Shown: piece by piece, positions 46,560 through 61,514 of the stretch | Layout of the letters: each line of letters begins with the position of its first letter | Numbering within the stretch: the first letter of the stretch is position 1 | Assembly (NCBI GenBank): GCA_965228615.1 | Contig: CBDDHT010000001.1 | Span: forward strand, 242,371-306,370 | Reading direction: 5' to 3' | Origin: Methyloligellaceae bacterium | GTDB taxonomy: Bacteria; Pseudomonadota; Alphaproteobacteria; Rhizobiales; Methyloligellaceae | DNA length: 64,000 bases | Notes under the pieces: model-generated | Told to the model about the DNA's origin: nothing | Databases searched by the model: none | The model's input: only the letters and a program-made list of their open reading frames with translations | Translations under genes and position numbers: made by a program

Positions 46560-47087
46560 CTAGCCGGCCTGACGAATGGCCGAGAGGATATCTTGCATCG
46601 CATCGCGAGCCAGTGCCTCGAGCTCATCGCCCGTCCGGTTCTGGATCGGGTGTTCCAGCCATACAATGGCGGGCTGAAAGCCGAGCGTCTTGCTTTGCGC
46701 ATCGACCGCGCTTTCGAACTCGGTCGTCACCACGAAGCAGCCGGGCAGACCGCGCGCGTCCATTTCTTGTATGTCATGCAGACCGCACGACGTGCAGGAG
46801 CCTCAATCGGCGAGGGCTTGGACGACGACGTCCGTCTCTTTCGCGATTTGCGCGAGGAGCGCCGGATCGGCGACCTTGGCATTGGTCGGCTTGGCGTAGC
46901 GCCGCGTGTCGATGCCGCGCTCGCCCAGGAGACGCTCGACATGATCGAGGAAGTCGTCGCTGCGGGTCTTGCCGATATCCATGAGAGCGACAGTCTTGCC
47001 CTCAAGCGTCTCGGGCGGTTGACGGCGGGGCCTTTCGAGAGGCGCGTCTTCCGCCGTCGGGTCGTAGAGTTTTGTCGTGCTGCTCAC
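46560..47087 (-). CDS. UGSC-type selenoprotein (in-frame TGA at 46803..46805 read as selenocysteine)
   Basis: The two ORF-track pieces (46803..47087 and 46560..46763) are in the same frame and are separated only by TGA plus 13 sense codons. The junction reads ..VVQALAD-U-GSCTSCGLHD. A SECIS-like hairpin follows. GTG start with GGGAG 8 nt upstream, overlapping the upstream stop (GTGA). Confidence 0.7.
46773..46791 (-). other. SECIS-like hairpin GUCGUGC-GGUCU-GCAUGAC
   Basis: A 7-bp stem (one G-U pair) with a 5-nt loop, starting 11 nt after the UGA. The loop GGUCU occupies positions 22-26 counted from the U of UGA, the same as in the E. coli fdhF SECIS as I recall it. Confidence 0.65.
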
Positions 47088-48523
47088 AATATAATCTCCC
47101 GCGTAACAGGTTGGAGTTCATCTTTATTGCGCCCGCCGATCCAGCCGGCCATGATGCCGGAAAAGAGCCCGGCGGGTCCTCCGGCACGGACGATGAGAAG
47201 CCCGTCCCGGTGGAACTTGGGCAGCATCTCGTCCGCGCAGCTTTCCGGCATGCCTTCGCCAACACCGTTCGCGCCCTGAACCAGATCCCGCCCCGGGCGC
47301 AGGAGCGCATCATACAATTCTTTGCTGATCTGCGCCCTGTCCCAGCCTGCATTTCGATAGATCGCATAATGCTCAGGCGACAAGACCAGGACAGCGTTGC
47401 ACCACTCGCAAAGTTTTGGATGCACGACCGCGGCGAGCGACATGGCAAGCGAGCGGGTCAACTCTTCCGGCGTTCGCGAACGCTGATCCACAAAGCCCTG
47501 CACCCCGTCGCCCTGAAAGAGTGTAATGGCGCTCTTTCCCGGCGCGATCCCGCGCGACACCGAGAGCGGCTCCCATTCCGGATCGCTCTCATCCTCGGCG
47601 AAGCAGAAGGTATATTTGCCGGGTGTTCCTAGCCCCGCCCGGTCGATTTCTCCAGGCCGCCCGCCGCCAATATTGCGAACGATCAGGTTCAGGGCGCGTC
47701 CGATCGTAGCGTTGGCGCGATTGCCCTGCCCAAGCGCGTTGAAGCCGCCATTCATCCCGATCGAACGGGCGATGGGTCCGTTGACGATGATAATGGGACT
47801 ACAAGGTGCTGTTGAGCAGGTCAGCCCATGAAGCGTGAACATCGGGTCGAGCGCCGTTTCGACCGCGGCGATCACAACGGGAAAATACTCAGGCTTGCAT
47901 CCGGCCATGACAGCATTGATGGCGGCCTTCTCGACCGTTAGCGGTGCCAGGTTGGGCGGGATCATACCGATCACATCGTCCGGCGCACGGTTGGTCCCTG
48001 CAAGCATGCGCAAGAGTCGCGGCCCGGTCGGCGGCACCACCGGCAATCCATCGGTCCATCCGCGCTCGAAGGCCTGTTCGATCTCATCGTCATACTCGCC
48101 AATGTCGACCGAACGCGAGCGAAGCGGCAAGTTTCCGAACCGCGCCTGCAAGACCTCCTGCACGCCCGGATCGATATTCTTGGCGCCGCATCCCGGCTGG
48201 TTCTCCGGGAGATCGGCGCCGAGCTCGTCCTTGCCAAGGAAGTCGCGCCACTCGTTGCGGTTCCATCCGAACACACGGGCTGTTTCGTCCCCAGACGCAT
48301 CGAAACGGATCAATGTCGGAACGACTTCGACGCCGAGTTTGAATGAGGTTTCCAGCGTTCTGTCGTCAATAATGGAAGGTACGCCCTCAGGAAACGCCGG
48401 ATCGTCCTGGGAAATGATCTCAATGCCAGAGCCGTTTGCCGCGAGGTCGCGCAGAACCGGCACTACTAGTTGGCAGGTTGGGCAATCTTGTTTGACAACC
48501 GCGATCAGGCGTTCATTGGGCAT
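47084..48523 (-). CDS. thioredoxin-fold (CPTC) N-terminal domain fused to an uncharacterised ~350-aa conserved domain
   Basis: N-terminus MPNERLIAVVKQDCPTCQLVVPVLRDL (CxxC in a thioredoxin-like context). Translationally coupled to the selenoprotein gene. Confidence 0.7.
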   Translation of the reverse strand: MPNERLIAVVKQDCPTCQLVVPVLRDLAANGSGIEIISQDDPAFPEGVPSIIDDRTLETSFKLGVEVVPTLIRFDASGDETARVFGWNRNEWRDFLGKDELGADLPENQPGCGAKNIDPGVQEVLQARFGNLPLRSRSVDIGEYDDEIEQAFERGWTDGLPVVPPTGPRLLRMLAGTNRAPDDVIGMIPPNLAPLTVEKAAINAVMAGCKPEYFPVVIAAVETALDPMFTLHGLTCSTAPCSPIIIVNGPIARSIGMNGGFNALGQGNRANATIGRALNLIVRNIGGGRPGEIDRAGLGTPGKYTFCFAEDESDPEWEPLSVSRGIAPGKSAITLFQGDGVQGFVDQRSRTPEELTRSLAMSLAAVVHPKLCEWCNAVLVLSPEHYAIYRNAGWDRAQISKELYDALLRPGRDLVQGANGVGEGMPESCADEMLPKFHRDGLLIVRAGGPAGLFSGIMAGWIGGRNKDELQPVTREIIL

Positions 48524-49291: not shown

Positions 49292-50752
49292 CTACCGAAC
49301 TTCACAAATCCGGTCACACGCACTCCGACCGAGCCTAGCCAGCCTGCACTGGTTCACGATGCAGCGGCAGCGATCCTTACATGCCGGCGTCGCCGACCCG
49401 GTTCCGTTACACAAGTTGCTATGACACGCCGCCTCGCTCGCAAAGGTGTAGGCCTGGGTCGACACCGAGGAAGACATCCGACCCGCCAAGCTTCTCGGCA
49501 ATGCCCTGTTGCGATCAGCACCAAGCGCGCGTCCGCTGATGCTGCGGGTCAAGGCCTGCGCCTGTTGGGCTTCTGCGAGTTCCTTGGCCAACCGGCCGCG
49601 TTCATTCACAAGCCCGATTAATTCGGTTTGCGTTTCGATCAGCTCCGCCCGATTTTTTGTGTTGTCGATCCTTACCTTGAAGATTGCCGTGGGTAGCTTG
49701 ATGATCGCATCCGCCACCGTCAGCGGTATCTTGACAAATCCGGCTAGCTCACTGCCCTTTTCGATGTCGACGTCGACAAGCGCTCCGGCGTTGAACTTCA
49801 GGACGGTCTTACGCGTAGCGAAGAATGTCCGGTCAACGCCAATCGCGAGAATCGGTGACTTGTTCTCAAGTGGGACGGCTTTTTGTTTGCGTAGGTTCCA
49901 TCTCACCTCACCTTCGTGCATCGGACTGACATACTTTGCGTTGATGTTGCTCTTGACATAGACCATCAGCGTATAGTTGAGCCGCGGGCGATAGAGAATA
50001 CCCAGTGAGGAGTCAACCGGGGAAATCGTTGGCGCGCGTCGATAATATTGTGACGCCAGAATCGCGTTTTCACGCGATCTGCTGGAGGTCCTTTTCGCGC
50101 CGCGATACTTGGCAAGGAAACCCAAGGGATTCTCGCAATATTCGCCGACTTTGAAATAGCCCATGTCGATGACCCAATCGGCTTCTTGCAGGAGCAGGCA
50201 AAAGCCGAGGTCGTTCAGTGAATCATTGAGAACTGCCGTCTCCATTTCGTCGAACGGGTCGAAATCCGCCTTAAAGGGTTGGACGAAGATACCCCCCACT
50301 GCTCTGGTCCGGAAACTCCTGTCTCCGGATAACCCGGCGAAAACGGTTTCCACCAATGTGTTGGCAATCTCCGGCGTCTTGTCCTCGGCGAAGGACGAAA
50401 TCTCCTGGAGGATCCCCTTCGTTTTTCTGACCGTCAATCGCTCATTGTGCACGGGCGACGTTCTGAAATTCAGGCAATAGCCATGGCGCCGGTCCGGTAC
50501 GGCATGGACCTCCACGGCGTTGAGGACCAGGTTTCCTGATGGCTGCTCCCTCGACTCTCCTTCAGGCGGGGTAACTCTAACGCGAATGACACCTTTAGAT
50601 AGAAAATAGGCGCCTGCGTCTTCTCGGCATGAGACTTCTGATCTGAATTCGCTGATCTGTGTGCTGCCGACCATTGCGCACCCTGCCAGCGAAACAACAA
50701 AGCCGGCAGCTACAATCGAGCCCAGACGGGCATGAGTTCCAAGATTCATCAT
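49292..50752 (-). CDS. lipoprotein A1 of unknown family, with 8-Cys C-terminal tail
   Basis: The start MMNLGTHARLGSIVAAGFVVSLAGC (lipobox) gives an ATGA overlap with the B1 stop. Close paralogue of A2. Confidence 0.75.
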   Translation of the reverse strand: MMNLGTHARLGSIVAAGFVVSLAGCAMVGSTQISEFRSEVSCREDAGAYFLSKGVIRVRVTPPEGESREQPSGNLVLNAVEVHAVPDRRHGYCLNFRTSPVHNERLTVRKTKGILQEISSFAEDKTPEIANTLVETVFAGLSGDRSFRTRAVGGIFVQPFKADFDPFDEMETAVLNDSLNDLGFCLLLQEADWVIDMGYFKVGEYCENPLGFLAKYRGAKRTSSRSRENAILASQYYRRAPTISPVDSSLGILYRPRLNYTLMVYVKSNINAKYVSPMHEGEVRWNLRKQKAVPLENKSPILAIGVDRTFFATRKTVLKFNAGALVDVDIEKGSELAGFVKIPLTVADAIIKLPTAIFKVRIDNTKNRAELIETQTELIGLVNERGRLAKELAEAQQAQALTRSISGRALGADRNRALPRSLAGRMSSSVSTQAYTFASEAACHSNLCNGTGSATPACKDRCRCIVNQCRLARLGRSACDRICEVR

Positions 50753-52209
50753 TGGGATGCTCTCTTCGCGAGTTCTGCGACATTGACGCCCGGACAAAGG
50801 AAGTCCGGCTCCGTCTCAACTCTGATCTTGCCGTCCTTGCCAAGACCGGTCGTCCTGATGTTTGCCAGCGGCTGGCTGCTGAACTCAGCTGGCGCAACAT
50901 CAGCCGGCGGGCTTGGAGCCCTGAGAGCTTTCAGGTGGTTGATTTGCGCGGTAATCAGCCTTTGCTGTGTCTCAACGAGTTGGGCCCTGTTCGACGCGCT
51001 GCTGATCCTGAGCTGTAGAATGCGGGTCGGAAGGGCGACGATGCTCTTCACGACGACAAGCGGTATCTTGACTGCCTCCACAACGGGCGCTGTTTTGCGA
51101 ATGCAGACATTCTGCAGAATCCCGCCGATGAAGACGAGATCTGTGCGGCGCTCCGCGAAGTAGGTGCGCGTCAGGCGGACGGCGACGAGTGGCGAAATGT
51201 TCTCAAGCTGGACTTCTTTTTTGATCTTGAGCCGCCACTCATGTCCTGATTTTTTTTTATCCTTCCTTCGGCCGAACACATAGAGCGTGTAGGACATTTC
51301 CGGTCGGTAGAGAATCCCCTTCGGCAACTCCTCCAAAGGCGTCCGATACTCGTCAAGCAACTCGTGGAAAAAGCGACCACCCACGACTGGGGGTGCCTTC
51401 TTAATCGTCATGATGGGCTTGTCACAGTAATCGTCGATGCGCGCACTTTGGAGATCGAAATTGTAGCCACCCAAGACGGCGCAGAACCCGAAATCTCTCA
51501 AGGCCTGGTTTGCTGCGGCGGTTTGATAAGGCTCGAACGGGTCGAACTCGATGTCCAACACCGTTTCATTGTCACCGAACGTCTGCAGGCGGGCGCTGCC
51601 GCTTAAACCGGCGCCAATATCGAACAGGGACTTGACCAGATCCTGGGCAATCTGCGCGCTACGGTCGATCGCTTTGGAGGACACAATGAACAAAAGGTTG
51701 GTCGTCTTGAGCAGACTTGCGTCCGACTTCCCCGGTATGTCGCTCGCGTCCGCCTCCGGAGTTGTAGCTTTGGCGTCCTTACCCGAAAACAATCCCGGCA
51801 ACGTCTCGCGCAATTCGTCCGGAATAGCGAGCGCCTTACGAACGTAGATTGTATCATCCGCCGTGATCGACCCGCGATATCTTAGGCAATAATTGTGAAG
51901 GCGATCCTCTCTGCGAACTTGCTTTATTTCCTGCAGAACGTATTTTTCCTCTCCCTGCTTTTTTATTTTGAATTTCAGCAGTGATTTCGGCAGTGAGTAA
52001 GAGCCTGCATTGGACTTGCAGGCAATCGGAACCGCTTCGGACCCGACAATCCGCTGGTCTGTCCGCATCATGTCGCATCCAAACGAACCGGTTAAGAGAG
52101 CGGCGAACAGGGCTGCCTTGCTGATGGTCTTATTGGTCTGTTTACGCATGACATCTTTGGATCGCGGCGAACACGCTCCTTCAGCCTGCCGTTTGGTGCC
52201 GAGGATCAT
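50749..52209 (-). CDS. lipoprotein B1 of unknown family (distant homologue of A1/A2)
   Basis: ATGA overlap with the P1 stop. Signal ..KAALFAALLTGSFGC. Close paralogue of B2. An internal start at 52149 (MRKQTNK) is possible. Confidence 0.75.
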   Translation of the reverse strand: MILGTKRQAEGACSPRSKDVMRKQTNKTISKAALFAALLTGSFGCDMMRTDQRIVGSEAVPIACKSNAGSYSLPKSLLKFKIKKQGEEKYVLQEIKQVRREDRLHNYCLRYRGSITADDTIYVRKALAIPDELRETLPGLFSGKDAKATTPEADASDIPGKSDASLLKTTNLLFIVSSKAIDRSAQIAQDLVKSLFDIGAGLSGSARLQTFGDNETVLDIEFDPFEPYQTAAANQALRDFGFCAVLGGYNFDLQSARIDDYCDKPIMTIKKAPPVVGGRFFHELLDEYRTPLEELPKGILYRPEMSYTLYVFGRRKDKKKSGHEWRLKIKKEVQLENISPLVAVRLTRTYFAERRTDLVFIGGILQNVCIRKTAPVVEAVKIPLVVVKSIVALPTRILQLRISSASNRAQLVETQQRLITAQINHLKALRAPSPPADVAPAEFSSQPLANIRTTGLGKDGKIRVETEPDFLCPGVNVAELAKRASQ

Positions 52210-53477
52210 TGTTGGGACCCTTGTGTTGGTGTTATCTCTCCGTCGCAGACGCAGTCTGGCTGCTGGCCGTCAACGACGGGGTCTGGCAACGGCGCTACCT
52301 TGTCGAGCCACGCGCGGACCTGCGGCGTGATAACGCTGTAGATGCCACCGGGACCGCACCTTGCGCCGGAGAAGGCACGGGACGTGATTGCGGCGACGTA
52401 ATAGTTGCTGCCGTCATACAGATAAGCCGGACCGCCGCTATCGCCGCGGCACGTGTCGCGCTGGTAGTACCAGTCGTTGAGGATCATTTCTCGTCCCGGG
52501 ACACAATCCACATAGAGCAGTCCGCCATCGTGGCCGTCGCAGAGCTTCGATCCGATCGCAATGGCAGCGTGGAATTTCGGGCGATCGCCGAAACCGCGAT
52601 CGGTACGGGAATTAATCCCATAACCGACAACAGTCAGGGCGTTCGTCGTCCGCGACAGATAAAGTTCAGGTGGAGCCAGAACAGCCGGTTTCACATTCTC
52701 GGGAGCCGGCCGCCGTAAGAACACCACGGCGATGTCGAAGCCGTACCAGAGACGAGACGTCCGGCTGTACTTCTTGCAGAACCTCTGATCGAACAGCTTG
52801 GTCTTCGTCAGGTCGACATCTCGTCCGACTTGGAGGGCCGCGCTCAGTCTTGAAGGAGCGTTTGCGCCGAATATCGCCAGCAAACGGACCCCGGACAGGT
52901 TTTGCCCCCCAAGCAAGTCACACACACAGTGCCCTGCCGTCAGCACGGCTTCTTCATTAACCAGAACGCCTGTGCACGTGCCCATGGCTGTGCCACCCAT
53001 ATAGGGGCGCAGCGCCACGGCGTGCAGAAAGAAGTCATTCTCCGGAGTGATCCGCTCACCTCCGATGACGCGAAGCCCCAGCTCCGCATCCCGAAGGAAG
53101 CTGTCCACATTGCGACGTGCGACCGGATCCCGATCGAAGGGCGATCGCCGCTCCCGCGCGGCGCGGAGCGCGCCTTTGGTCGGCATTCTGGTCTCATCCG
53201 GCCCACGCTTCACATCACCGAAGACGGCGCGGAGGCCGAACCGCAGCCGCGCCATGTAGGCTGCAGGGTCCCGCTCGTCGAAGGAGCCGACATTCTCCCT
53301 GAGCTTCCTGATGGCGTTGGCTTGGCGAGGTTGGTAGCCCGGCACTCTGAACTTGGCCGTCGCCAGTCTTTCTCTGCGCAAAACGATCGACCGGTCCTGA
53401 GCATATGCGACAATCGTATCGGCAAGAGAGACCGTCACGAGCGTGGCCAGGAGCATAATGGAAAGGTGTGTTTTCAT
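52206..53477 (-). CDS. secreted trypsin-like (S1/chymotrypsin-fold) serine protease zymogen P1
   Basis: Start is trimmed to MKTHLSIMLLATLVTVSLA (signal), 1 nt after the A2 stop. Triad LTAGHCV / DIAVVF / GDSGGP. S1-pocket Asp (RDTCRGDSGGP). Activation-type junction LGLR-VIGGE. Confidence 0.85.
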   Translation of the reverse strand: MKTHLSIMLLATLVTVSLADTIVAYAQDRSIVLRRERLATAKFRVPGYQPRQANAIRKLRENVGSFDERDPAAYMARLRFGLRAVFGDVKRGPDETRMPTKGALRAARERRSPFDRDPVARRNVDSFLRDAELGLRVIGGERITPENDFFLHAVALRPYMGGTAMGTCTGVLVNEEAVLTAGHCVCDLLGGQNLSGVRLLAIFGANAPSRLSAALQVGRDVDLTKTKLFDQRFCKKYSRTSRLWYGFDIAVVFLRRPAPENVKPAVLAPPELYLSRTTNALTVVGYGINSRTDRGFGDRPKFHAAIAIGSKLCDGHDGGLLYVDCVPGREMILNDWYYQRDTCRGDSGGPAYLYDGSNYYVAAITSRAFSGARCGPGGIYSVITPQVRAWLDKVAPLPDPVVDGQQPDCVCDGEITPTQGSQQ

Positions 53478-53478
53478 G

Positions 53479-54948
53479 TCACTCTCCGGCCACACAGAAA
53501 CTGTCACAAGCGCCCTGACCGATGCCGTTCGGAATACACTGGGTGAAAATGCATTGGCAGCGACTCTTGCAGGCCGCTGAAGGCGCGCCATTGGCACCAC
53601 ATTCGCTCCTCTGGCACTGCGCCTCAGACGCATAAGTGTACGGATCTGAGGGGGGCGAAAGTGACAAGGACCGGGCCAGGGAGCGCCCGAAGACAAGCGA
53701 GCCGCCAGTGGCGACCAAGCCGCTTGCCGCCGCGGCGGTCACTGCCCGTGCCTGCTGTTCTTTGGCAAGGTCGCTAGCCAGCTTCTGGCGTCCGTGCTCC
53801 AGCTTGATCAGTTCGGTCTGGGCCTTGATCAGTTCGGCGCGATTCTTCGTGTTGTTTACTCTCAGCTGCAGGATCTTCGTCGGCACCTTGATGATGGCGT
53901 CCGCGATCGTCAGCGGAATCTTGATGAAACCAACGAGTTCGCTGTTCTTTTCGATGTCCACATCGACAAGTGCGCCGGCATTGAACCTCAGGACGGTCTT
54001 GCGCTTGGCGAAGAACGTCCGGTCGACTCCGATTGCAAGGATCGGTGACTTGTTTTCCAGCGGAATGGTTTTCTGCTTGCGCAGGTTCCATCGCACCCCG
54101 CCAGGATGCATGGGACTGATATACTGGGCGTCGATGTTGCTCTTGACATAAACCTTCAGGGTATAGGTCAGGCGCGGGCGATAGAGGATGCCTCGACTGG
54201 AGTCGACAACGCCCGCGCCCGGCGTTTCTCTGAAGGTCTGTGATGCCAGAATTGCACGCTCGCGGATCGCCATAGGTGTCAACTTGGCGCCGCCACGCTT
54301 GGCAAGGAACGTCAGGGGATTATCGCAATACGCACCAGGATCGAATCTGCCCAGGTCAATGACCCAATCGGCTTCCCGCAGCATCATGCAAAAGCCGAGG
54401 TCATTCAGTTCGTCATTGAGAAGGGCTGTCTCCGTTGCGTCGAACGGGTCGAAATCCGCCTTGAAGGGTTGCTGGAATTCGCCGGCGGCGACGCGTGATT
54501 TCGCAAGAGCTTCTCCAGGCAAGTCCTTAAAGACCTGGTCCACCAGGGTGCTGAGCGCGTTTGGCGTTTGGTCCTCGGCAAACGACGAAATCTCCTGCAA
54601 CAGGCCCTTCGTCTTCCGGACCGTCAAGCGCTCATCGTGCAGCGGCGATGATCGAAAGTTCAGGCAGTAGCCATGCCGACGGTCCGGAACCGCATGAACA
54701 CTTACCTCCTGGAGGACAGTGTCGCCATTCTCCACGCTGACATCGACGCTAACGACTCCCTTGGACAGGAAATAGGCACCGGCGTCGTCCCGGCACGTCA
54801 CGTCCAACGTAAGATCACCCAACTGGGTGCTGTCCACCATGGAGCAACTCGCCAAGACCGCGGCCAACGGCAGGGCCGTGAGTGCCACCCCGAGATTGAC
54901 GCGAGAACGCGGCCACCACCAACACCGACTAGTCACGGCCCAGCTCAT
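53479..54948 (-). CDS. lipoprotein A2 of unknown family, with 8-Cys C-terminal tail
   Basis: Signal ..LPLAAVLASC. ATGA overlap with the B2 stop. Collinear with A1. Confidence 0.75.
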   Translation of the reverse strand: MSWAVTSRCWWWPRSRVNLGVALTALPLAAVLASCSMVDSTQLGDLTLDVTCRDDAGAYFLSKGVVSVDVSVENGDTVLQEVSVHAVPDRRHGYCLNFRSSPLHDERLTVRKTKGLLQEISSFAEDQTPNALSTLVDQVFKDLPGEALAKSRVAAGEFQQPFKADFDPFDATETALLNDELNDLGFCMMLREADWVIDLGRFDPGAYCDNPLTFLAKRGGAKLTPMAIRERAILASQTFRETPGAGVVDSSRGILYRPRLTYTLKVYVKSNIDAQYISPMHPGGVRWNLRKQKTIPLENKSPILAIGVDRTFFAKRKTVLRFNAGALVDVDIEKNSELVGFIKIPLTIADAIIKVPTKILQLRVNNTKNRAELIKAQTELIKLEHGRQKLASDLAKEQQARAVTAAAASGLVATGGSLVFGRSLARSLSLSPPSDPYTYASEAQCQRSECGANGAPSAACKSRCQCIFTQCIPNGIGQGACDSFCVAGE

Positions 54949-56384
54949 TGCGCCGACTCCTGCTTTTCGGAATCATCCAGCGCCTGTTGAGCCTGCGACA
55001 CGCGCGAGAAATTGGGACAGACAAAGTCTTCCCCGGTCGTGGGTTCCGCCTTAGAGATGGGACTTGCCTGCGGATCGGTGAACGCCACAGGCACAAATTT
55101 GAACTCCGCTGTCTTCTCTGAAACCTCCCGTTTAGTCATGGCATCGAGCTGGGCTTTTTGTTGCCTCAGAACTTCTTGCTGCGCCTTGACGACCTCGGCC
55201 CTGTTTGACGCGCTGTCGATCTTCAGCTGCAGGATGCGGGTGGGCAGAGCGATGATGCTCTTGACCACGACGAGCGGAAGCTTGACTGCTTCGACCAATG
55301 GAGCTGTCTTTTGAATACAGACGTTCTGCAGGACCCCGCCTATGAAGACCAGATCCGTACGACGCTGGGCGAAATAGGTGCGCGTCAAACGCACAGCGAC
55401 AAGCGGCGAGATGTTCTCAAGTTGGACCTCTTCCTTGAGCTTGAGGAGCCACTCATGCTTGGGATCGGTTTTGTCCTCGTCTCGGCCGAAAACATAGAGC
55501 GTGTAGGTCATTTCCGGGCGGTAGAGAATGCCATTCGGCAGCTCCTCCAATGGTGCCCGGTACTCCGCCAGCAATTCCTCATAATGGTGGCCGTCGACGA
55601 TGGGCGGGGCGGTCTTCAACGTCCCCATCGGGTTATTGCAATACTGATCAATGCGCGCCTGGTGCAGATCGAAATTGTAGCCGCCCAGAACCGCACAAAA
55701 TCCAAGATCCGCCAAGGCCTGATTCGCCTCCGCGGTCTGATAGGGTTCAAACGGGTCGAACTCAATCTCCAGAACCGTTTTCCCTGTGTTGACAAAGAGA
55801 GCCCGGGTGCTCCTGCTGAGCCCTGTACCGATATCGAACACCGATTTGACTAGGTTCTGCACGATCTCCGCGCTGCGATCGATGGCCTTCGACGAGACCA
55901 CATGCAAGAGGTTCGTTAGCTGGAGCAGCTCCGCGTCCGGTCTCGTCACCAGCAGCTCGGCGTCGCCCGTCGCGCGTTCCCTCGCTGTCGTCTGTACGGT
56001 CAACGCTGCTTCAACCAGCTCAGATTTGACGGCTTTTGCCTTGCGGACATAGACCGTGTCGTCCGATGTAATGGCGCCACGGTATTGCAGGCAATAGGTA
56101 TGGAGACGGTCCTCCTTCCTGACTTGCTCGATCGCTTGGAGGACGTGCTCCTTCCTTTTGCCCTGACCGGTCATTTCCTTAACCGTGAAGCGGAGGAATG
56201 ATTTCGGTAGCGCATAGGAGCCCGCATTCGACGTGCACGCGATCGGATCAGCTTCTGACCCGATGATCCGCTGCTCGGTCCGCACCATGTCGCAACCGAG
56301 AAGAAAAGTGACGGATACGCCAACTGCAAAGCCGCCGATTTGCATTATGTTGTTGCGCTTGTGCAATTGACTTTCCCTTCCCAC
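54945..56384 (-). CDS. lipoprotein B2 of unknown family
   Basis: Signal MGRESQLHKRNNIMQIGGFAVGVSVTFLLGC (canonical lipobox). Collinear with B1. Confidence 0.75.
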   Translation of the reverse strand: MGRESQLHKRNNIMQIGGFAVGVSVTFLLGCDMVRTEQRIIGSEADPIACTSNAGSYALPKSFLRFTVKEMTGQGKRKEHVLQAIEQVRKEDRLHTYCLQYRGAITSDDTVYVRKAKAVKSELVEAALTVQTTARERATGDAELLVTRPDAELLQLTNLLHVVSSKAIDRSAEIVQNLVKSVFDIGTGLSRSTRALFVNTGKTVLEIEFDPFEPYQTAEANQALADLGFCAVLGGYNFDLHQARIDQYCNNPMGTLKTAPPIVDGHHYEELLAEYRAPLEELPNGILYRPEMTYTLYVFGRDEDKTDPKHEWLLKLKEEVQLENISPLVAVRLTRTYFAQRRTDLVFIGGVLQNVCIQKTAPLVEAVKLPLVVVKSIIALPTRILQLKIDSASNRAEVVKAQQEVLRQQKAQLDAMTKREVSEKTAEFKFVPVAFTDPQASPISKAEPTTGEDFVCPNFSRVSQAQQALDDSEKQESAQ

Positions 56385-56411: not shown

Positions 56412-57617
56412 CTATTTCTTGGTGTATTGAGACAATTCCCTGCAGTTCAAATCCATATTTTGTTTCGATTTGAGCACTAACGACATTTTCCGACCATCTG
56501 TTCCGTCTGCTTGACGGCAAGAAAATTCTATACGCAAATACATCAAATGATCCGGGGTGTGTTTTGATGGGTCACCGCCCGCACAGAATTTGTCTCTAAT
56601 TTTCGACAATTTCTCTACTGACGCGCATGAATAGTGATTAACTCTAAAATCCGTATTTTCTTCTTGATCTTGTGGATCACAAATATTTTGAATGATTTTT
56701 GTTGAGTCACAATATAGTTTTTTATTTTTATCTACGTGTGAATTGGTAAAATCACCAAACGACGCTGCGTTGATGGTTAACCATTTTGTGTCAAAGTAAG
56801 CAGAAATATTCTGATCGACCGATTTAAGTTCGTTGAAGAGCGTGCGAACGGCACTTTCACTGGCATAGTCCAAGACGCGACTATAAGTGTCAGAAATCAC
56901 CTTGATGATCTCCGAAGCAGCCGCCAGCGCGATGTAATCCGGGCATTGGTCTATAAAATTCTCATCGATTGCTTTTCGATACTGTCCGTCATTGATGTAT
57001 TTCACCAATATTCCCAGTTTTTCTTCAGCCGCACCAACAAGAGTTCTGAATTGCAGACCCATGTTGACATTCACAAAATCCTTAAATTGGCTCAAGTCAC
57101 CAACGCGGGCGCCACGATTTTTCATATCTTGAGTGGCTTGATCTAGCGCGACAACTTGTCTGCGTCGCGACACAAAATCTGCAACATCTGCGATTGCTTG
57201 TTCCGCTGCTGAAATTTTCTCCATGAGAATCGTTTTGTTTATTACTTCCACAAGAATGCCCGACGGATTCTGGCTGTTGCTGACGGTGCACTTGCCGGCC
57301 AACGCGTTATGACGTTTCATCAGTTGGCCGTTGGCATAGCTTGTTGAAGAGCACGCTGCGAGCGCCGCCAGCAGCAGCATTACCTGAGCCGCCAAGCTGC
57401 GGCAGACGCATGCGGATCTACAGAGAGGGTCGAGTTTCAGTGCAACTAACTTCCAAAACGGCGTCAATCGTGCTGTGAGGCGCCGTCCCGCAGACTGTAT
57501 TGTCGAAACAAGGGTGGGCGGCGAAAGATAAAAATCCTGTTTGCCAACATAGAAATGGCAAGAATAGTTAGTAATAATATGAGCAATACTGCCACGCGTA
57601 CACATAACAAACTCCAA
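56412..57617 (-). CDS. hypothetical secreted/lipoprotein C (AT-rich gene), first gene of the island operon
   Basis: Long ORF in a visibly AT-rich stretch. Internal signal-like segment ..AAQVMLLLAALAACSS (lipobox). The true start could be as far downstream as 57380. The stop lies 27 nt before B2. Confidence 0.5.
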   Translation of the reverse strand: MEFVMCTRGSIAHIITNYSCHFYVGKQDFYLSPPTLVSTIQSAGRRLTARLTPFWKLVALKLDPLCRSACVCRSLAAQVMLLLAALAACSSTSYANGQLMKRHNALAGKCTVSNSQNPSGILVEVINKTILMEKISAAEQAIADVADFVSRRRQVVALDQATQDMKNRGARVGDLSQFKDFVNVNMGLQFRTLVGAAEEKLGILVKYINDGQYRKAIDENFIDQCPDYIALAAASEIIKVISDTYSRVLDYASESAVRTLFNELKSVDQNISAYFDTKWLTINAASFGDFTNSHVDKNKKLYCDSTKIIQNICDPQDQEENTDFRVNHYSCASVEKLSKIRDKFCAGGDPSKHTPDHLMYLRIEFSCRQADGTDGRKMSLVLKSKQNMDLNCRELSQYTKK

Positions 57618-58330: not shown

Positions 58331-60511
58331 ATGAGCCCGAAAAGCCTCACGTCGAGAACGAGAACACTGGCGAAACACTGCCGATGGCGCACGGCGGCCA
58401 TGCTGATTGTCGGTGGTTTTCTGGCAGCCGCACCACTGGGAGCTGAGGAGCTGCGCCCGCTGAAGGACATCGAAGCGGCAGAATTTGGAGCGCAGCTGAG
58501 CGCGGAGTTTAAGGCTCTGCTCGCTAAGTCTGCGAGAATCAAGCAGATCCTCAACGCAGCCCAAGGGGCTGGGAATTGTCCGATCGAACGTCCGCCCGTG
58601 GTAGGCGTAACAGTAACAATCGTAGAGGGGGTCTTGGCCCATGACCAAACGGTCGTCGGCGCACTCCTGAAGCGTCACAAGCCGACGAACCCATTCCGGC
58701 TCCATTGCAGTGGCACCCTCGCTGATCTGAATTCCAAATGGCGCTCAGTAGACCGGGCCCGACAGGGCATCTTCGTGACAGCAGCGCACTGCATCGCGAC
58801 GGACCCCGACCACAAGGCTGATATCAGCCCCGCGGCCTACAAGGTGTTCCTTCAGCACGCCGGGCTCTTCAATGTGCGGAAGATCCACCTGCAGCGCCTT
58901 GATCTGCCAGATGTCAGTAAAGATATCGCAATATTGGAGTTGGATCGTCCTGTCTCCGGCATCGTGCCAATAAGGCCGCGCGTGGACGACAAGCCTGCAA
59001 ACATTATTCGCGCAATGATTGCCGGTTTCGGACGAACGGGCGGTCTTGCAACGGACTATGGGATGAAACGTAGGGGCAATGTCTGCCTCAAACAATGCCC
59101 GGGAAACGATCGGGATAATTTGTGCTGGGAGTTTCAAAGCTCTTCGGGTCCTCCCGGTGTTGCGTCGAATACATGCAATGGGGACTCAGGCGGCCCTGTC
59201 CTTGTGACTGACACCCGTAAGGTAACACAACTGGCCGGCGTAATCTCAGGCGGCTCAATTGAGAGCTGCCTCAGCGGCGATATTGCCACTAACAGCAGCT
59301 TAAACGCGAACAGTGTGTGGATTGAATCGGTATTGGCGTCAGCCAGCACTGAACAGTCATGCAAGAGGAAGTACTCCAATATCGACCCAGATGACATCTT
59401 GGCCGCGACGGGCGAAATCAAGCTGAATGAGAAAGCAAAACGCTACATATTCAATGTCATTGATGGCCTAGAACATATTCCATTGAATAATGCATTTCAC
59501 CCGTTCGTTCAAAGAAACGAGGCTCGAGGCGCGATATGTCGAACAAGAATCAAAGAAATGAAAACAAAAATGGACAACAAGGAATTTGTTGATCTCAGCT
59601 CCCTCAACACAACATTAGCTGTTTGCTGGCCTCACATTAGAGGTAATATTGGGAATGTATTCTCGCGAGCAAAATTTATTCGCACTAAGTCACCTCAATT
59701 GAAAACGGCTCGCCGAAGCATGCCTCGAGGGATTTGCCGTGACATTGACGACCCGTATAGGCAGCCGAAGAAATGGACCCGCTACCTTGAATGCAGAGCG
59801 CTCCATATCAAAAGAGATTTAAATACCGTCAAAGACCAATTTAAAACAATATATGATTATCTGACGAGATCGGAGAGCGCTGGATACTACAACGATGCAC
59901 CTGATGTTCGGCAATTTGAATTAAAGACAGTGCGTGGCGCAATAATAGAAGCTATGACCTCGATAGATGGAATGATAAACAAAACAAATGATATCATAGA
60001 AATCACGAGAAATTTTTTGAGGAATGAGCCTCTTTTGTCTCGCATCGAGCAATCTGAGATGCATGTGGATGAACTATCGATGGATCCATCTGGTCTCATA
60101 ACCGACGATACTTTGCATCTCAGATCTCTCAGTTCTCCTGACAGATATCTTGTATCTCTCGCCAAGGCGTATGCTCGCCAAATCAACTGGCGGCCGGACC
60201 AAGTGCGTATCGCCATGAATGCGATTGACGATCCACTAAAGCCGGCCAACTTTGACCTGAGAATTGTGCCTCCGGACGGTTCCAAACACGAAAGAGCCTG
60301 CCCAACGATAGCCAATCCCAGCCAGTTTGAGTATTGCCAGATCGATGGTCCTGCCCCTGGAGACTGGACCGTTGCGTTTGCCGAATCTACGAGTGGTACG
60401 GGTCAATTCCAGTTAACGGTTGGGTCGGCGTTCCACAGAAAGGACAAGGACGCTGCAACGCATGGCTCATTCTGCTCCACAACAAACACGGTGCACGCAT
60501 CTCGACAATGA
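58331..60511 (+). CDS. secreted S1 (chymotrypsin-fold) serine protease P2 with long C-terminal extension ending in a PPC-like domain
   Basis: Signal (AAMLIVGGFLAAAPLGA). Triad VTAAHCI / DIAILEL / NGDSGGPV. The ~400-aa C-terminal extension ends with ..GPAPGDWTVAFAESTSGTGQFQLTV, reminiscent of pre-peptidase C-terminal domains. Confidence 0.8.
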   Translation: MSPKSLTSRTRTLAKHCRWRTAAMLIVGGFLAAAPLGAEELRPLKDIEAAEFGAQLSAEFKALLAKSARIKQILNAAQGAGNCPIERPPVVGVTVTIVEGVLAHDQTVVGALLKRHKPTNPFRLHCSGTLADLNSKWRSVDRARQGIFVTAAHCIATDPDHKADISPAAYKVFLQHAGLFNVRKIHLQRLDLPDVSKDIAILELDRPVSGIVPIRPRVDDKPANIIRAMIAGFGRTGGLATDYGMKRRGNVCLKQCPGNDRDNLCWEFQSSSGPPGVASNTCNGDSGGPVLVTDTRKVTQLAGVISGGSIESCLSGDIATNSSLNANSVWIESVLASASTEQSCKRKYSNIDPDDILAATGEIKLNEKAKRYIFNVIDGLEHIPLNNAFHPFVQRNEARGAICRTRIKEMKTKMDNKEFVDLSSLNTTLAVCWPHIRGNIGNVFSRAKFIRTKSPQLKTARRSMPRGICRDIDDPYRQPKKWTRYLECRALHIKRDLNTVKDQFKTIYDYLTRSESAGYYNDAPDVRQFELKTVRGAIIEAMTSIDGMINKTNDIIEITRNFLRNEPLLSRIEQSEMHVDELSMDPSGLITDDTLHLRSLSSPDRYLVSLAKAYARQINWRPDQVRIAMNAIDDPLKPANFDLRIVPPDGSKHERACPTIANPSQFEYCQIDGPAPGDWTVAFAESTSGTGQFQLTVGSAFHRKDKDAATHGSFCSTTNTVHASRQ

Positions 60512-60566: not shown

Positions 60567-61514
60567 CTACAAACGAGCCACCAGCTTTCTGAGCCCCTCC
60601 AGTTCGTGCTCGACATTCTCGATTCGTCGGAGAAACGTCTCCCGCAGCACATCATTGACGCTGACTTCCGCCGCTGCCCTGGCAAATAGCTGATCACGCC
60701 TCCGTCTCGGCGGGTACAGGAATTGAACGCCGTCAATGTCGTCCTGGCTCAACTCCCTATTGGGGATGCCTCTATGGACCTCTGGTCTCATGACGGAGCC
60801 CATTAACTTCACATGATCCATACCCAAAATATGACCGATTTCGTGGAGTGCGACGGTCTCAACGTCAAACTCCTCATCATCGGTATCCACATCGACAGAC
60901 CAATTTCGATCACTGTCATCGAAGCGGATTGGCTTCGGGATTTTATCTTGCGGTGTGTTCCTGGAGCATCCTGGCGGAAAGTCGGCATAAGCGACAACGT
61001 CGCCCTGGCTGTCGAATTTCGAATCATTGCCTGAGACCCAGGCGATATCAACGTGCGGGTTGTCGCTCAAATCAACCTCACGAAAGGTCACAGATTCGGC
61101 CACATCCTGCCACTGGTCGAAGGCCCGTCTTACGGCGTCAAACGCGGCAACATCGCTCAAGGACGAGGGGCCTGCTCCGAAGGCATAGCGAATCTCGCTT
61201 TCTTTCCAAGAGCACTTCGTGCTGAACTCGGTGCCGTTGAGCATGTCTGCAATGCCACATCGTGGCAGGCACATATGATCACGCGTTGCTTTGTCGAATG
61301 TTTCGGTAATGGGACAGCCATTAAATTCCTGGTATTTGCGGAGTGCCAATTGAGTCACCGAATCCAGTTGACAAGGCGTGCAAATGTCCGAAGTTAGATA
61401 ACCCAGCTGGACCAATAAATCCTGGGCTGAGTCAAAACCTTTACGACTCCTTCCCCTTGCTGGCGACCTTACATCCTCGATATTTCTGAATTGAGAATGG
61501 TATCGTCTTGACAT
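60567..61514 (-). CDS. matrixin-like (M10) zinc metalloprotease with PG-binding-like prodomain and cysteine switch
   Basis: HEIGHILGMDH zinc site followed by a Met-turn candidate (GSVMRP). The prodomain has LALRKYQEFNG.. (PGBD-like) and PRCGIAD (compare the MMP cysteine switch PRCGVPD). No obvious signal peptide. Confidence 0.8.
   Translation of the reverse strand: MSRRYHSQFRNIEDVRSPARGRSRKGFDSAQDLLVQLGYLTSDICTPCQLDSVTQLALRKYQEFNGCPITETFDKATRDHMCLPRCGIADMLNGTEFSTKCSWKESEIRYAFGAGPSSLSDVAAFDAVRRAFDQWQDVAESVTFREVDLSDNPHVDIAWVSGNDSKFDSQGDVVAYADFPPGCSRNTPQDKIPKPIRFDDSDRNWSVDVDTDDEEFDVETVALHEIGHILGMDHVKLMGSVMRPEVHRGIPNRELSQDDIDGVQFLYPPRRRRDQLFARAAAEVSVNDVLRETFLRRIENVEHELEGLRKLVARL

Follow-up and report, generated by a model that had tools for sequence, protein, structure and literature searches.

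The 64,000-nucleotide stretch of DNA analysed here, called the window throughout, comes from a Methyloligellaceae bacterium (positions 242,371 to 306,370 of contig CBDDHT010000001.1) and carries on its minus strand a cluster of six genes in the order X, B2, A2, P1, B1 and A1 (Table 1). These genes encode an exported protein (X), two pairs of paralogous lipoproteins (A1 and A2, B1 and B2) and a secreted trypsin-like serine protease (P1). Because adjoining genes of the cluster are spaced by 4-nucleotide overlaps or 1-nucleotide gaps (e.g., the likely start of P1, MKTHLS, lies 1 nucleotide past the A2 stop codon), the cluster looks like one operon. A1 and A2 are 60% identical and B1 and B2 59%, whereas identity between A and B proteins is about 30%, which indicates that the B-A pair was duplicated as a unit; here the second copy of the pair lies behind the protease gene. 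The subject of this analysis is the C-terminal tail of the A proteins, which contains eight cysteines, is very probably a helical knob stapled by disulfides, and hangs on a linker that may be a substrate of the protease encoded in the same cluster.

Positions 49295-49441, on the reverse strand, translate to ASEAACHSNLCNGTGSATPACKDRCRCIVNQCRLARLGRSACDRICEVR, the end of A1, with the stop codon directly after, and positions 53482-53631, on the minus strand, to ASEAQCQRSECGANGAPSAACKSRCQCIFTQCIPNGIGQGACDSFCVAGE, the corresponding end of A2. Both tails have eight cysteines with the spacing 4-9-3-1-4-9-3, i.e., C-x4-C-x9-C-x3-C-x-C-x4-C-x9-C-x3-C, and the second half of this pattern duplicates the first, giving 2 x (C-x4-C-x9-C-x3-C) with one residue between the units. 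The tails of B1 and B2 are short and have one cysteine each, and when the window is read in all six frames, a generalised form of the eight-cysteine pattern matches at just two places, the A1 and A2 tails. The initial annotation of this DNA, which described an eight-cysteine tail of identical spacing on the A paralogues only, therefore holds on this point, as does its remark that the residues between the cysteines have diverged while the spacing stayed fixed. The two tails are 44% identical, and identity at their non-cysteine residues is 34% vs 69% in the body, with all eight cysteines kept. Between A1 and A2, the ratio of nonsynonymous to synonymous substitution rates (dN/dS) rises from 0.18 in the body to 0.28 in the tail (0.44 when its cysteines are left out) and 0.88 in the linker, all rough values since dS is near saturation.

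The A and B lipoproteins belong to a family of which an exhaustive profile search recovered 2776 representatives at an expectation value (E) of at most 1e-3, and 433 at E ≤ 1e-30. A word-index search recovered only four outside relatives, and none when the tail alone was the query; a profile scan of genome contigs gave one weak Sphingomonas locus, one relative comes from a Xanthobacteraceae bin, a plasmid collection yielded no match, and an exact look-up of A1 gave no entry. Named members of the family are annotated only as "hypothetical protein", and neither A nor B nor X is covered by a model in Pfam, NCBIfam or PADLOC. When the cysteines in the last 80 residues were counted in the 154 readable members, tails without cysteine were found in 9 sequences and tails with one, two, three, four, six and eight cysteines in 80, 19, 3, 13, 8 and 22 sequences, respectively.

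The 22 eight-cysteine tails follow the pattern C-x3/4-C-x5-13-C-x3-C-x-C-x3/4-C-x7-15-C-x3-C, which amounts to two fused twin-CX3C units. Once these tails are aligned, the eight cysteines are the sole invariant columns (identity to A1 is 19-29%), in agreement with a discrete, selected mini-domain defined by its cysteines, as the initial annotation had conceived it. Its expectation of a fixed spacing among homologues is upheld for the cysteines themselves, all eight of which are kept in these 22 tails, but not for the exact x4 spacing: C-x3-C prevails among the relatives, and the loops differ in length. The strict motif C-X3-C-Xn-C-X3-C is absent from the window, in which both units of A1 and A2 read C-x4-C-x9-C-x3-C, whereas among the other 20 eight-cysteine relatives unit 1 fits the strict CX3C motif in all (20/20), while unit 2 is divided between x3 (11 relatives) and x4 (9). 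Single four-cysteine units (C-x3-C-x10-C-x3-C) occur in the family members P0033 and P0103, P0098 keeps one shortened outer loop, and one separate clade of the family carries just C-x9-C in the tail. In a comparison of bodies with the tails removed, nearest neighbours share their tail class: B-type bodies pair with B-type bodies (81/81), those with two tail cysteines with one another (19/19), and those with eight with bodies that have eight, six or four (22/22). Since, moreover, the bodies closest to that of A1 (P0129, P0014 and P0011, 40-47% identity) all have eight tail cysteines, the tail is a module that has been passed down within the A lineage.

The AlphaFold model of full-length A1, based on an 88-sequence alignment, consists of a β-rich body, a very long helix (residues 335-407), a low-confidence stretch (residues 408-429, with a predicted local distance difference test score, pLDDT, below 50) and three confident helices that hold C1 and C2, C3 to C6, and C7 and C8, respectively (Table 1), with block-mean pLDDT values of 81-95. 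Modelled alone from an alignment of 22 tails, the A1 tail gives the same three helices (mean pLDDT 80.8), and neither the full-length nor the tail-alone model contains a β-strand in the tail. The tail is thus predicted to be ordered, disorder being the outcome that the initial annotation had named as contrary to its proposal. In the models it consists of two antiparallel helix hairpins that share the middle helix, and the helix-loop-helix arrangement of the α-hairpinins is thereby predicted. In the proposed structure the tail would be an all-helical knob of two fused twin-CX3C (cystine-stabilised helix-loop-helix) units, with the long central helix common to both, and it would be the last element of the A subunit, following the β-rich body, a helix of about 70 residues and the disordered linker.

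How the cysteines pair is suggested by three six-cysteine variants of the family, which are missing C2 along with C3 (P0012 and P0030) or C6 along with C7 (P0031). Because these variants are without the inner pair of one unit, the nested disulfides of a C1-C4/C2-C3 hairpin are favoured, and in A1 the pairs would be C443-C462, C448-C458, C464-C483 and C469-C479. The lipobox cysteine is invariant in an eight-sequence family alignment (SLAGC in A1, VLASC in A2), which identifies the A proteins as bacterial lipoproteins, and their signals are of the general secretory (Sec) type, no twin-arginine motif being seen in A1 or A2. Once A has been exported by Sec and lipidated, its knob would most likely receive these four nested disulfides from the oxidation machinery of the periplasm; the Sec-type lipoprotein signal, together with four near-invariant cysteines in the body, fits oxidative folding in the envelope. 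Those body cysteines (C42, C93, C185 and C206 in P0001 numbering) are invariant or nearly so across 88 family members, which suggests two structural disulfides in the lipoprotein body too. Two points weigh against the proposed fold. A Foldseek search against the PDB found no neighbour for the tail, and the C-x4-C of the window copies, as opposed to the C-x3-C of most relatives, may make the helix geometry slightly irregular. With the whole protein as query, Foldseek gave no convincing match either (best E=0.09). Weighing all this, that the tail is a disulfide-stapled helical knob of the twin-CX3C type is considered highly probable.

Cystine-stabilised helical hairpins are known in plants, scorpions and cone snails as well as in mitochondria. 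The small Tim proteins carry twin CX3C motifs on two antiparallel helices and are oxidised in a compartment homologous to the periplasm. They differ from the A tail in that they are stand-alone chaperone subunits with longer helices and not a C-terminal appendage, and Pfam scans of the full A proteins and of the tails gave no match to small Tim or to any other family. A helix-loop-helix of the form CX3C-Xn-CX3C with C1-C4/C2-C3 disulfides is found in plant α-hairpinins, scorpion κ-hefutoxins and some cone-snail toxins (PMC7191063). The plant α-hairpinins (e.g., EcAMP1, VhTI, BWI-2c, MiAMP2 and Luffin P1, including peptides buried in vicilins) share with the A tail the CX3C-Xn-CX3C signature and little other conservation, and their modules often lie inside much larger precursors, sometimes in tandem, from which they are excised by proteases (PMC7191063). 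However, α-hairpinins are eukaryotic and finally free-standing peptides of about 30-50 residues, whereas the A tail is the C-terminus of a 486-residue bacterial lipoprotein, in which two units are fused via a common helix with one residue between C4 and C5, in which the window copies have C-x4-C, and in which neither a charge nor a reactive-site Arg is conserved; homology between the two is not demonstrable. Searches of the PDB by sequence and by profile, with the tail sequences and with the family body, returned nothing; the best sequence matches of the tail profile, below significance and driven by cysteines, were κ-KTx1.2 (6ats_A, E=0.04) and κ-hefutoxin 1 (1hp9_A, E=0.2), both in register with all four cysteines of unit 1. 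These toxins, of the cystine-stabilised α/α (CS-α/α) fold, resemble the A tail in their C-x3-C-x10-C-x3-C pattern, and κ-hefutoxin and related cone-snail toxins have the nested disulfide pattern (PMC7191063), but they are single hairpins of 22-25 residues that block K+ channels, an activity of which there is no hint for the A tail. The matches are a resemblance, not homology.

The linker between the long helix and the knob is, as the initial annotation had stated, Arg/Ser-rich and of low complexity, and it is predicted to be disordered. It is only 21% identical between A1 and A2, and its substitution pattern is that of a segment that evolves almost neutrally. Against this background, the Arg-Ser dipeptide occurs 55 times in 50 A-type linkers, vs 18.9 +/- 4.0 times in shuffled ones (maximum 35 in 2000 shuffles), an enrichment of about 3-fold, while the 58 B-type linkers have 7 occurrences vs 8.9 when shuffled and are not enriched. 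Most often, Arg-Ser is followed by Ala, Gly, Leu or Ser. The dipeptide is the only recurrent feature in an otherwise almost freely drifting linker, and the best evidence for the linker as a putative protease substrate.

A candidate enzyme is encoded next to A2. P1 combines a signal peptide with a pro-region of about 110 residues, which ends in LR/VIGG (53058-53075), and carries the motifs TAGHC and DTCRGDSGGP (52428-52457). The PDB entries that match P1 best are factor Xa, granzyme K, plasmin and trypsin, and the Asp of its DTCRGDSGGP motif aligns with Asp189 of factor Xa. That P1 is an S1A protease with Arg/Lys specificity, as the initial annotation had it, is thus a fair prediction, the Asp189 equivalent of such proteases being present in its sequence; the motif D-x-C-x-G-D-S-G-G, with the same Asp, occurs both in P1 and in the corresponding proteases of loci L002, L003 and L010. 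The zymogen-like LR/VIGG junction implies activation by a cut after Arg, possibly by P1 itself. In seven of the eight loci compared (the window, L002, L003, L008, L009, L010 and the P0022 locus) the gene right after A encodes a trypsin domain, and the order [X]-B-A-trypsin recurs outside the window in L002, L003-L005, L008 and L009 (both partial), L010 and the P0022 locus; in these loci, B proteins have one tail cysteine and A proteins an even number. A is part of a conserved cassette of X, a B lipoprotein, an A lipoprotein and a trypsin-like protease.

Put together, these observations suggest a mechanism in which the knob would act as a protease-resistant terminal module of A, the Arg-specific protease of the cassette would cut the linker at Arg-Ser and so detach the knob with about 20-40 linker residues, and this detachment would serve as a proteolytic switch on an A/B complex. 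Because a trypsin-like gene with an Asp189 equivalent directly follows A in seven of the eight loci, cleavage and release can reasonably be inferred. The released fragment, if cut at the Arg-Ser sites, would have about 7-9 kDa rather than the 5 kDa or so of the initial annotation. Several points weigh against this mechanism: about 38% of the A-type linkers have no Arg-Ser, A1, at the end of the cluster, has no protease gene directly beside it, L011, the single exception to the gene order, has the knob and a non-trypsin gene after A, and the enrichment of Arg-Ser is a motif statistic and no evidence of cutting. On balance, a stapled three-helix knob on an Arg-Ser linker cut by the protease of the cassette is the best explanation of the whole and is given an even chance, while for its proteolytic part, the linker as a substrate of the cognate protease, the sequences allow a probability slightly below even.

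The first three of these points favour a different view of the knob, namely as a permanent structural or interaction cap that is never cut, while the protease acts on another target such as X, B or a substrate from outside. Stapling by disulfides is in general a way to resist proteases, and in such a cap the disulfides would make a small exposed domain resistant to a co-resident protease. What this view leaves unaccounted for is the enrichment of Arg-Ser in A-type and not in B-type linkers, amid near-neutral sequence, and the A-then-protease gene order. An uncut cap is therefore credible but rather unlikely. Somewhat more doubtful is an extension of the cleavage mechanism, in which the A lipoproteins would be precursors from which the dedicated protease frees a stapled helical peptide of 7-9 kDa that acts off its anchor as a signal, toxin or decoy.

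The eight cysteines could instead be ligands of a metal (Cu(I), Zn or similar) held on helices, with no disulfides. In support of this, the periplasmic copper storage proteins of the Csp1 type, which bind 13 or more Cu(I) through reduced thiols, likewise form their Cu(I) cores from helical CX3C motifs (PMC7558416). Like the A tail, these have many cysteines on helices in a periplasmic protein, and the paired loss of cysteines in the family also fits the loss of one metal site. Csp1-type proteins are, however, four-helix bundles exported by the twin-arginine translocation (Tat) pathway (PMC7558416), whereas A1 and A2 have Sec lipoprotein signals and a 45-residue three-helix module; moreover, the variants without C2 and C3 retain C1 and C4, which is sensible for a remaining disulfide, and there are no metal-handling genes in the cassette. 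Metal binding is thus improbable. Slightly less probable again is that the tail, while tethered, serves the cassette protease as a canonical inhibitor or pseudo-substrate, comparable to the α-hairpinin trypsin inhibitors VhTI and BWI-2c. Some α-hairpinins are indeed tight trypsin inhibitors with a reactive Arg between the two CXXXC motifs (PMC7191063), and the tail is co-encoded with a trypsin-like enzyme, but no basic residue is conserved in either loop: there is none in loop 1 of 9 of the 22 tails, none in loop 2 of 13, and none in either loop of A2, which makes a canonical inhibitor of the VhTI/BWI type unlikely. A general role as a cationic antimicrobial peptide is unlikely too, the eight-cysteine cores having a mean net charge of 0 (range -4 to +5) and no conserved positive charge. 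Knottin and defensin folds are β-rich, and although eight cysteines within about 45 residues, with variable residues between them, had led the initial annotation to liken the tail to such cystine-knotted peptides, this likeness is disfavoured as highly improbable, given the all-helical prediction in two independent runs, the tandem CX3C...CX3C pattern, the joint loss of inner cysteine pairs, which indicates nested and not knotted disulfides, the helix-loop-helix toxins as best (sub-significant) PDB sequence matches, and the lack of any knottin or defensin match in Pfam at E up to 10.

Table 1. Genes of the cluster and features of the A lipoproteins (positions in the window)
Feature	Position	Strand	Remarks
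X, first cassette gene	56412..57617	-	exported protein, Cys-rich C-terminal region
B2 lipoprotein paralogue	54945..56345	-	59% identical to B1; single tail Cys (DFVCPN, 55011-55028)
A2 lipoprotein gene	53479..54948	-	489-residue open reading frame; lipobox VLASC at 54844-54858
A2 linker segment GRSLARSL	53665..53688	-	two Arg-Ser dipeptides, 53680-53685 and 53668-53673
A2 C-terminal mini-domain, YTYASE...FCVAGE	53482..53640	-	eight-Cys core 53494-53616
P1, secreted trypsin-like serine protease	52206..53477	-	PF00089 (E=2.1e-18) and motifs
B1 lipoprotein paralogue	50749..52149	-	30% identical to A1; single tail Cys (DFLCPG, 50788-50805), no eight-Cys module
A1 lipoprotein gene	49292..50752	-	486 residues from MMNLG; longest open reading frame reaches 50797; lipobox SLAGC 50678-50692
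A1 linker, LTRSISGRALGADRNRALPRSLAGRMSSSVSTQA	49451..49552	-	predicted disordered; dN/dS 0.88
A1 Arg403-Ser404, candidate trypsin-type cleavage site	49541..49546	-	Arg-Ser dipeptide
A1 Arg420-Ser421, candidate trypsin-type cleavage site	49490..49495	-	Arg-Ser dipeptide
A1 C-terminal mini-domain, YTFASE...ICEVR	49295..49450	-	52 residues (435-486); predicted helices 440-448, 456-472, 476-484
A1 eight-Cys core, C443 to C483	49304..49426	-	Cys pattern

Further observations concern the partners of A and the surroundings of the cluster. The single tail cysteine of B-type proteins often lies in a [WF]xx[IV]CP context (DFLCPG and DFVCPN in the window; WATICP, WTSICP and WNGVCP in L003, L009, L010 and L011), and in exported proteins an unpaired cysteine at this place is suggestive of a disulfide between molecules or of a reactive thiol. 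In B1 and B2 the lipobox cysteine is directly followed by Asp (GCD; 52072-52086 and 56289-56303, minus strand), where A1 and A2 have Ala or Ser. Asp after the lipobox cysteine is a signal for inner-membrane retention in E. coli, but a general sorting of the two lipoproteins between membranes by this residue was rejected, because Asp is found in only 3 of 72 B-type relatives. The X gene lies in a stretch with a guanine-plus-cytosine content of 42.7%, vs 55-60% for its neighbours. The Cys-rich C-terminal region of X (..FCAGGDP..LRIEFSC) is distantly related to the first cassette gene of L002 (E=2e-5) and, on visual inspection, looks like the end of a SUEL-type lectin domain; Pfam gave no match.

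Beside the cluster, positions 58331-60511 (plus strand) encode a second trypsin-domain protein, of 726 residues, which has Asn at the position equivalent to Asp189 (SNTCNGDSGGP) and whose specificity probably differs, and next to it lies a gene for a matrixin (M10) metalloprotease with a peptidoglycan-binding domain (60567-61514, minus strand). Just downstream of the cluster, positions 47084-48523 (minus strand) encode a 479-residue protein with a thioredoxin-like CPTC motif at its start (VVKQDCPTCQLV) and a weak TraF-like match in Pfam (E=0.0011, under the family cutoff). Elsewhere, in two unrelated metagenomic loci, a gene for a caspase-like Peptidase_C14 protein lies beside or near the cassette (L003, 10656-13144, and the P0022 locus), and L003 also has DUF900 and Peptidase_M15_4 genes nearby.

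In all, the fold class of the A tail is known from eukaryotic peptides, while its fused tandem form on bacterial lipoproteins is absent from Pfam, NCBIfam and PADLOC, and a limited literature search found no description of a cystine-stabilised helical hairpin as a domain of the bacterial envelope. The fused tandem hairpin marks one subunit of a widespread, uncharacterised four-gene cassette, whose lipoprotein family counts 2776 representative sequences. As a compact and probably protease-resistant scaffold, the knob might also be put to use as such. Should the A lipoproteins be precursors of a released peptide, they would be a bacterial counterpart of the plant α-hairpinins that are embedded in precursors, and the peptide would represent the first bacterial class with a tandem CS-α/α fold.

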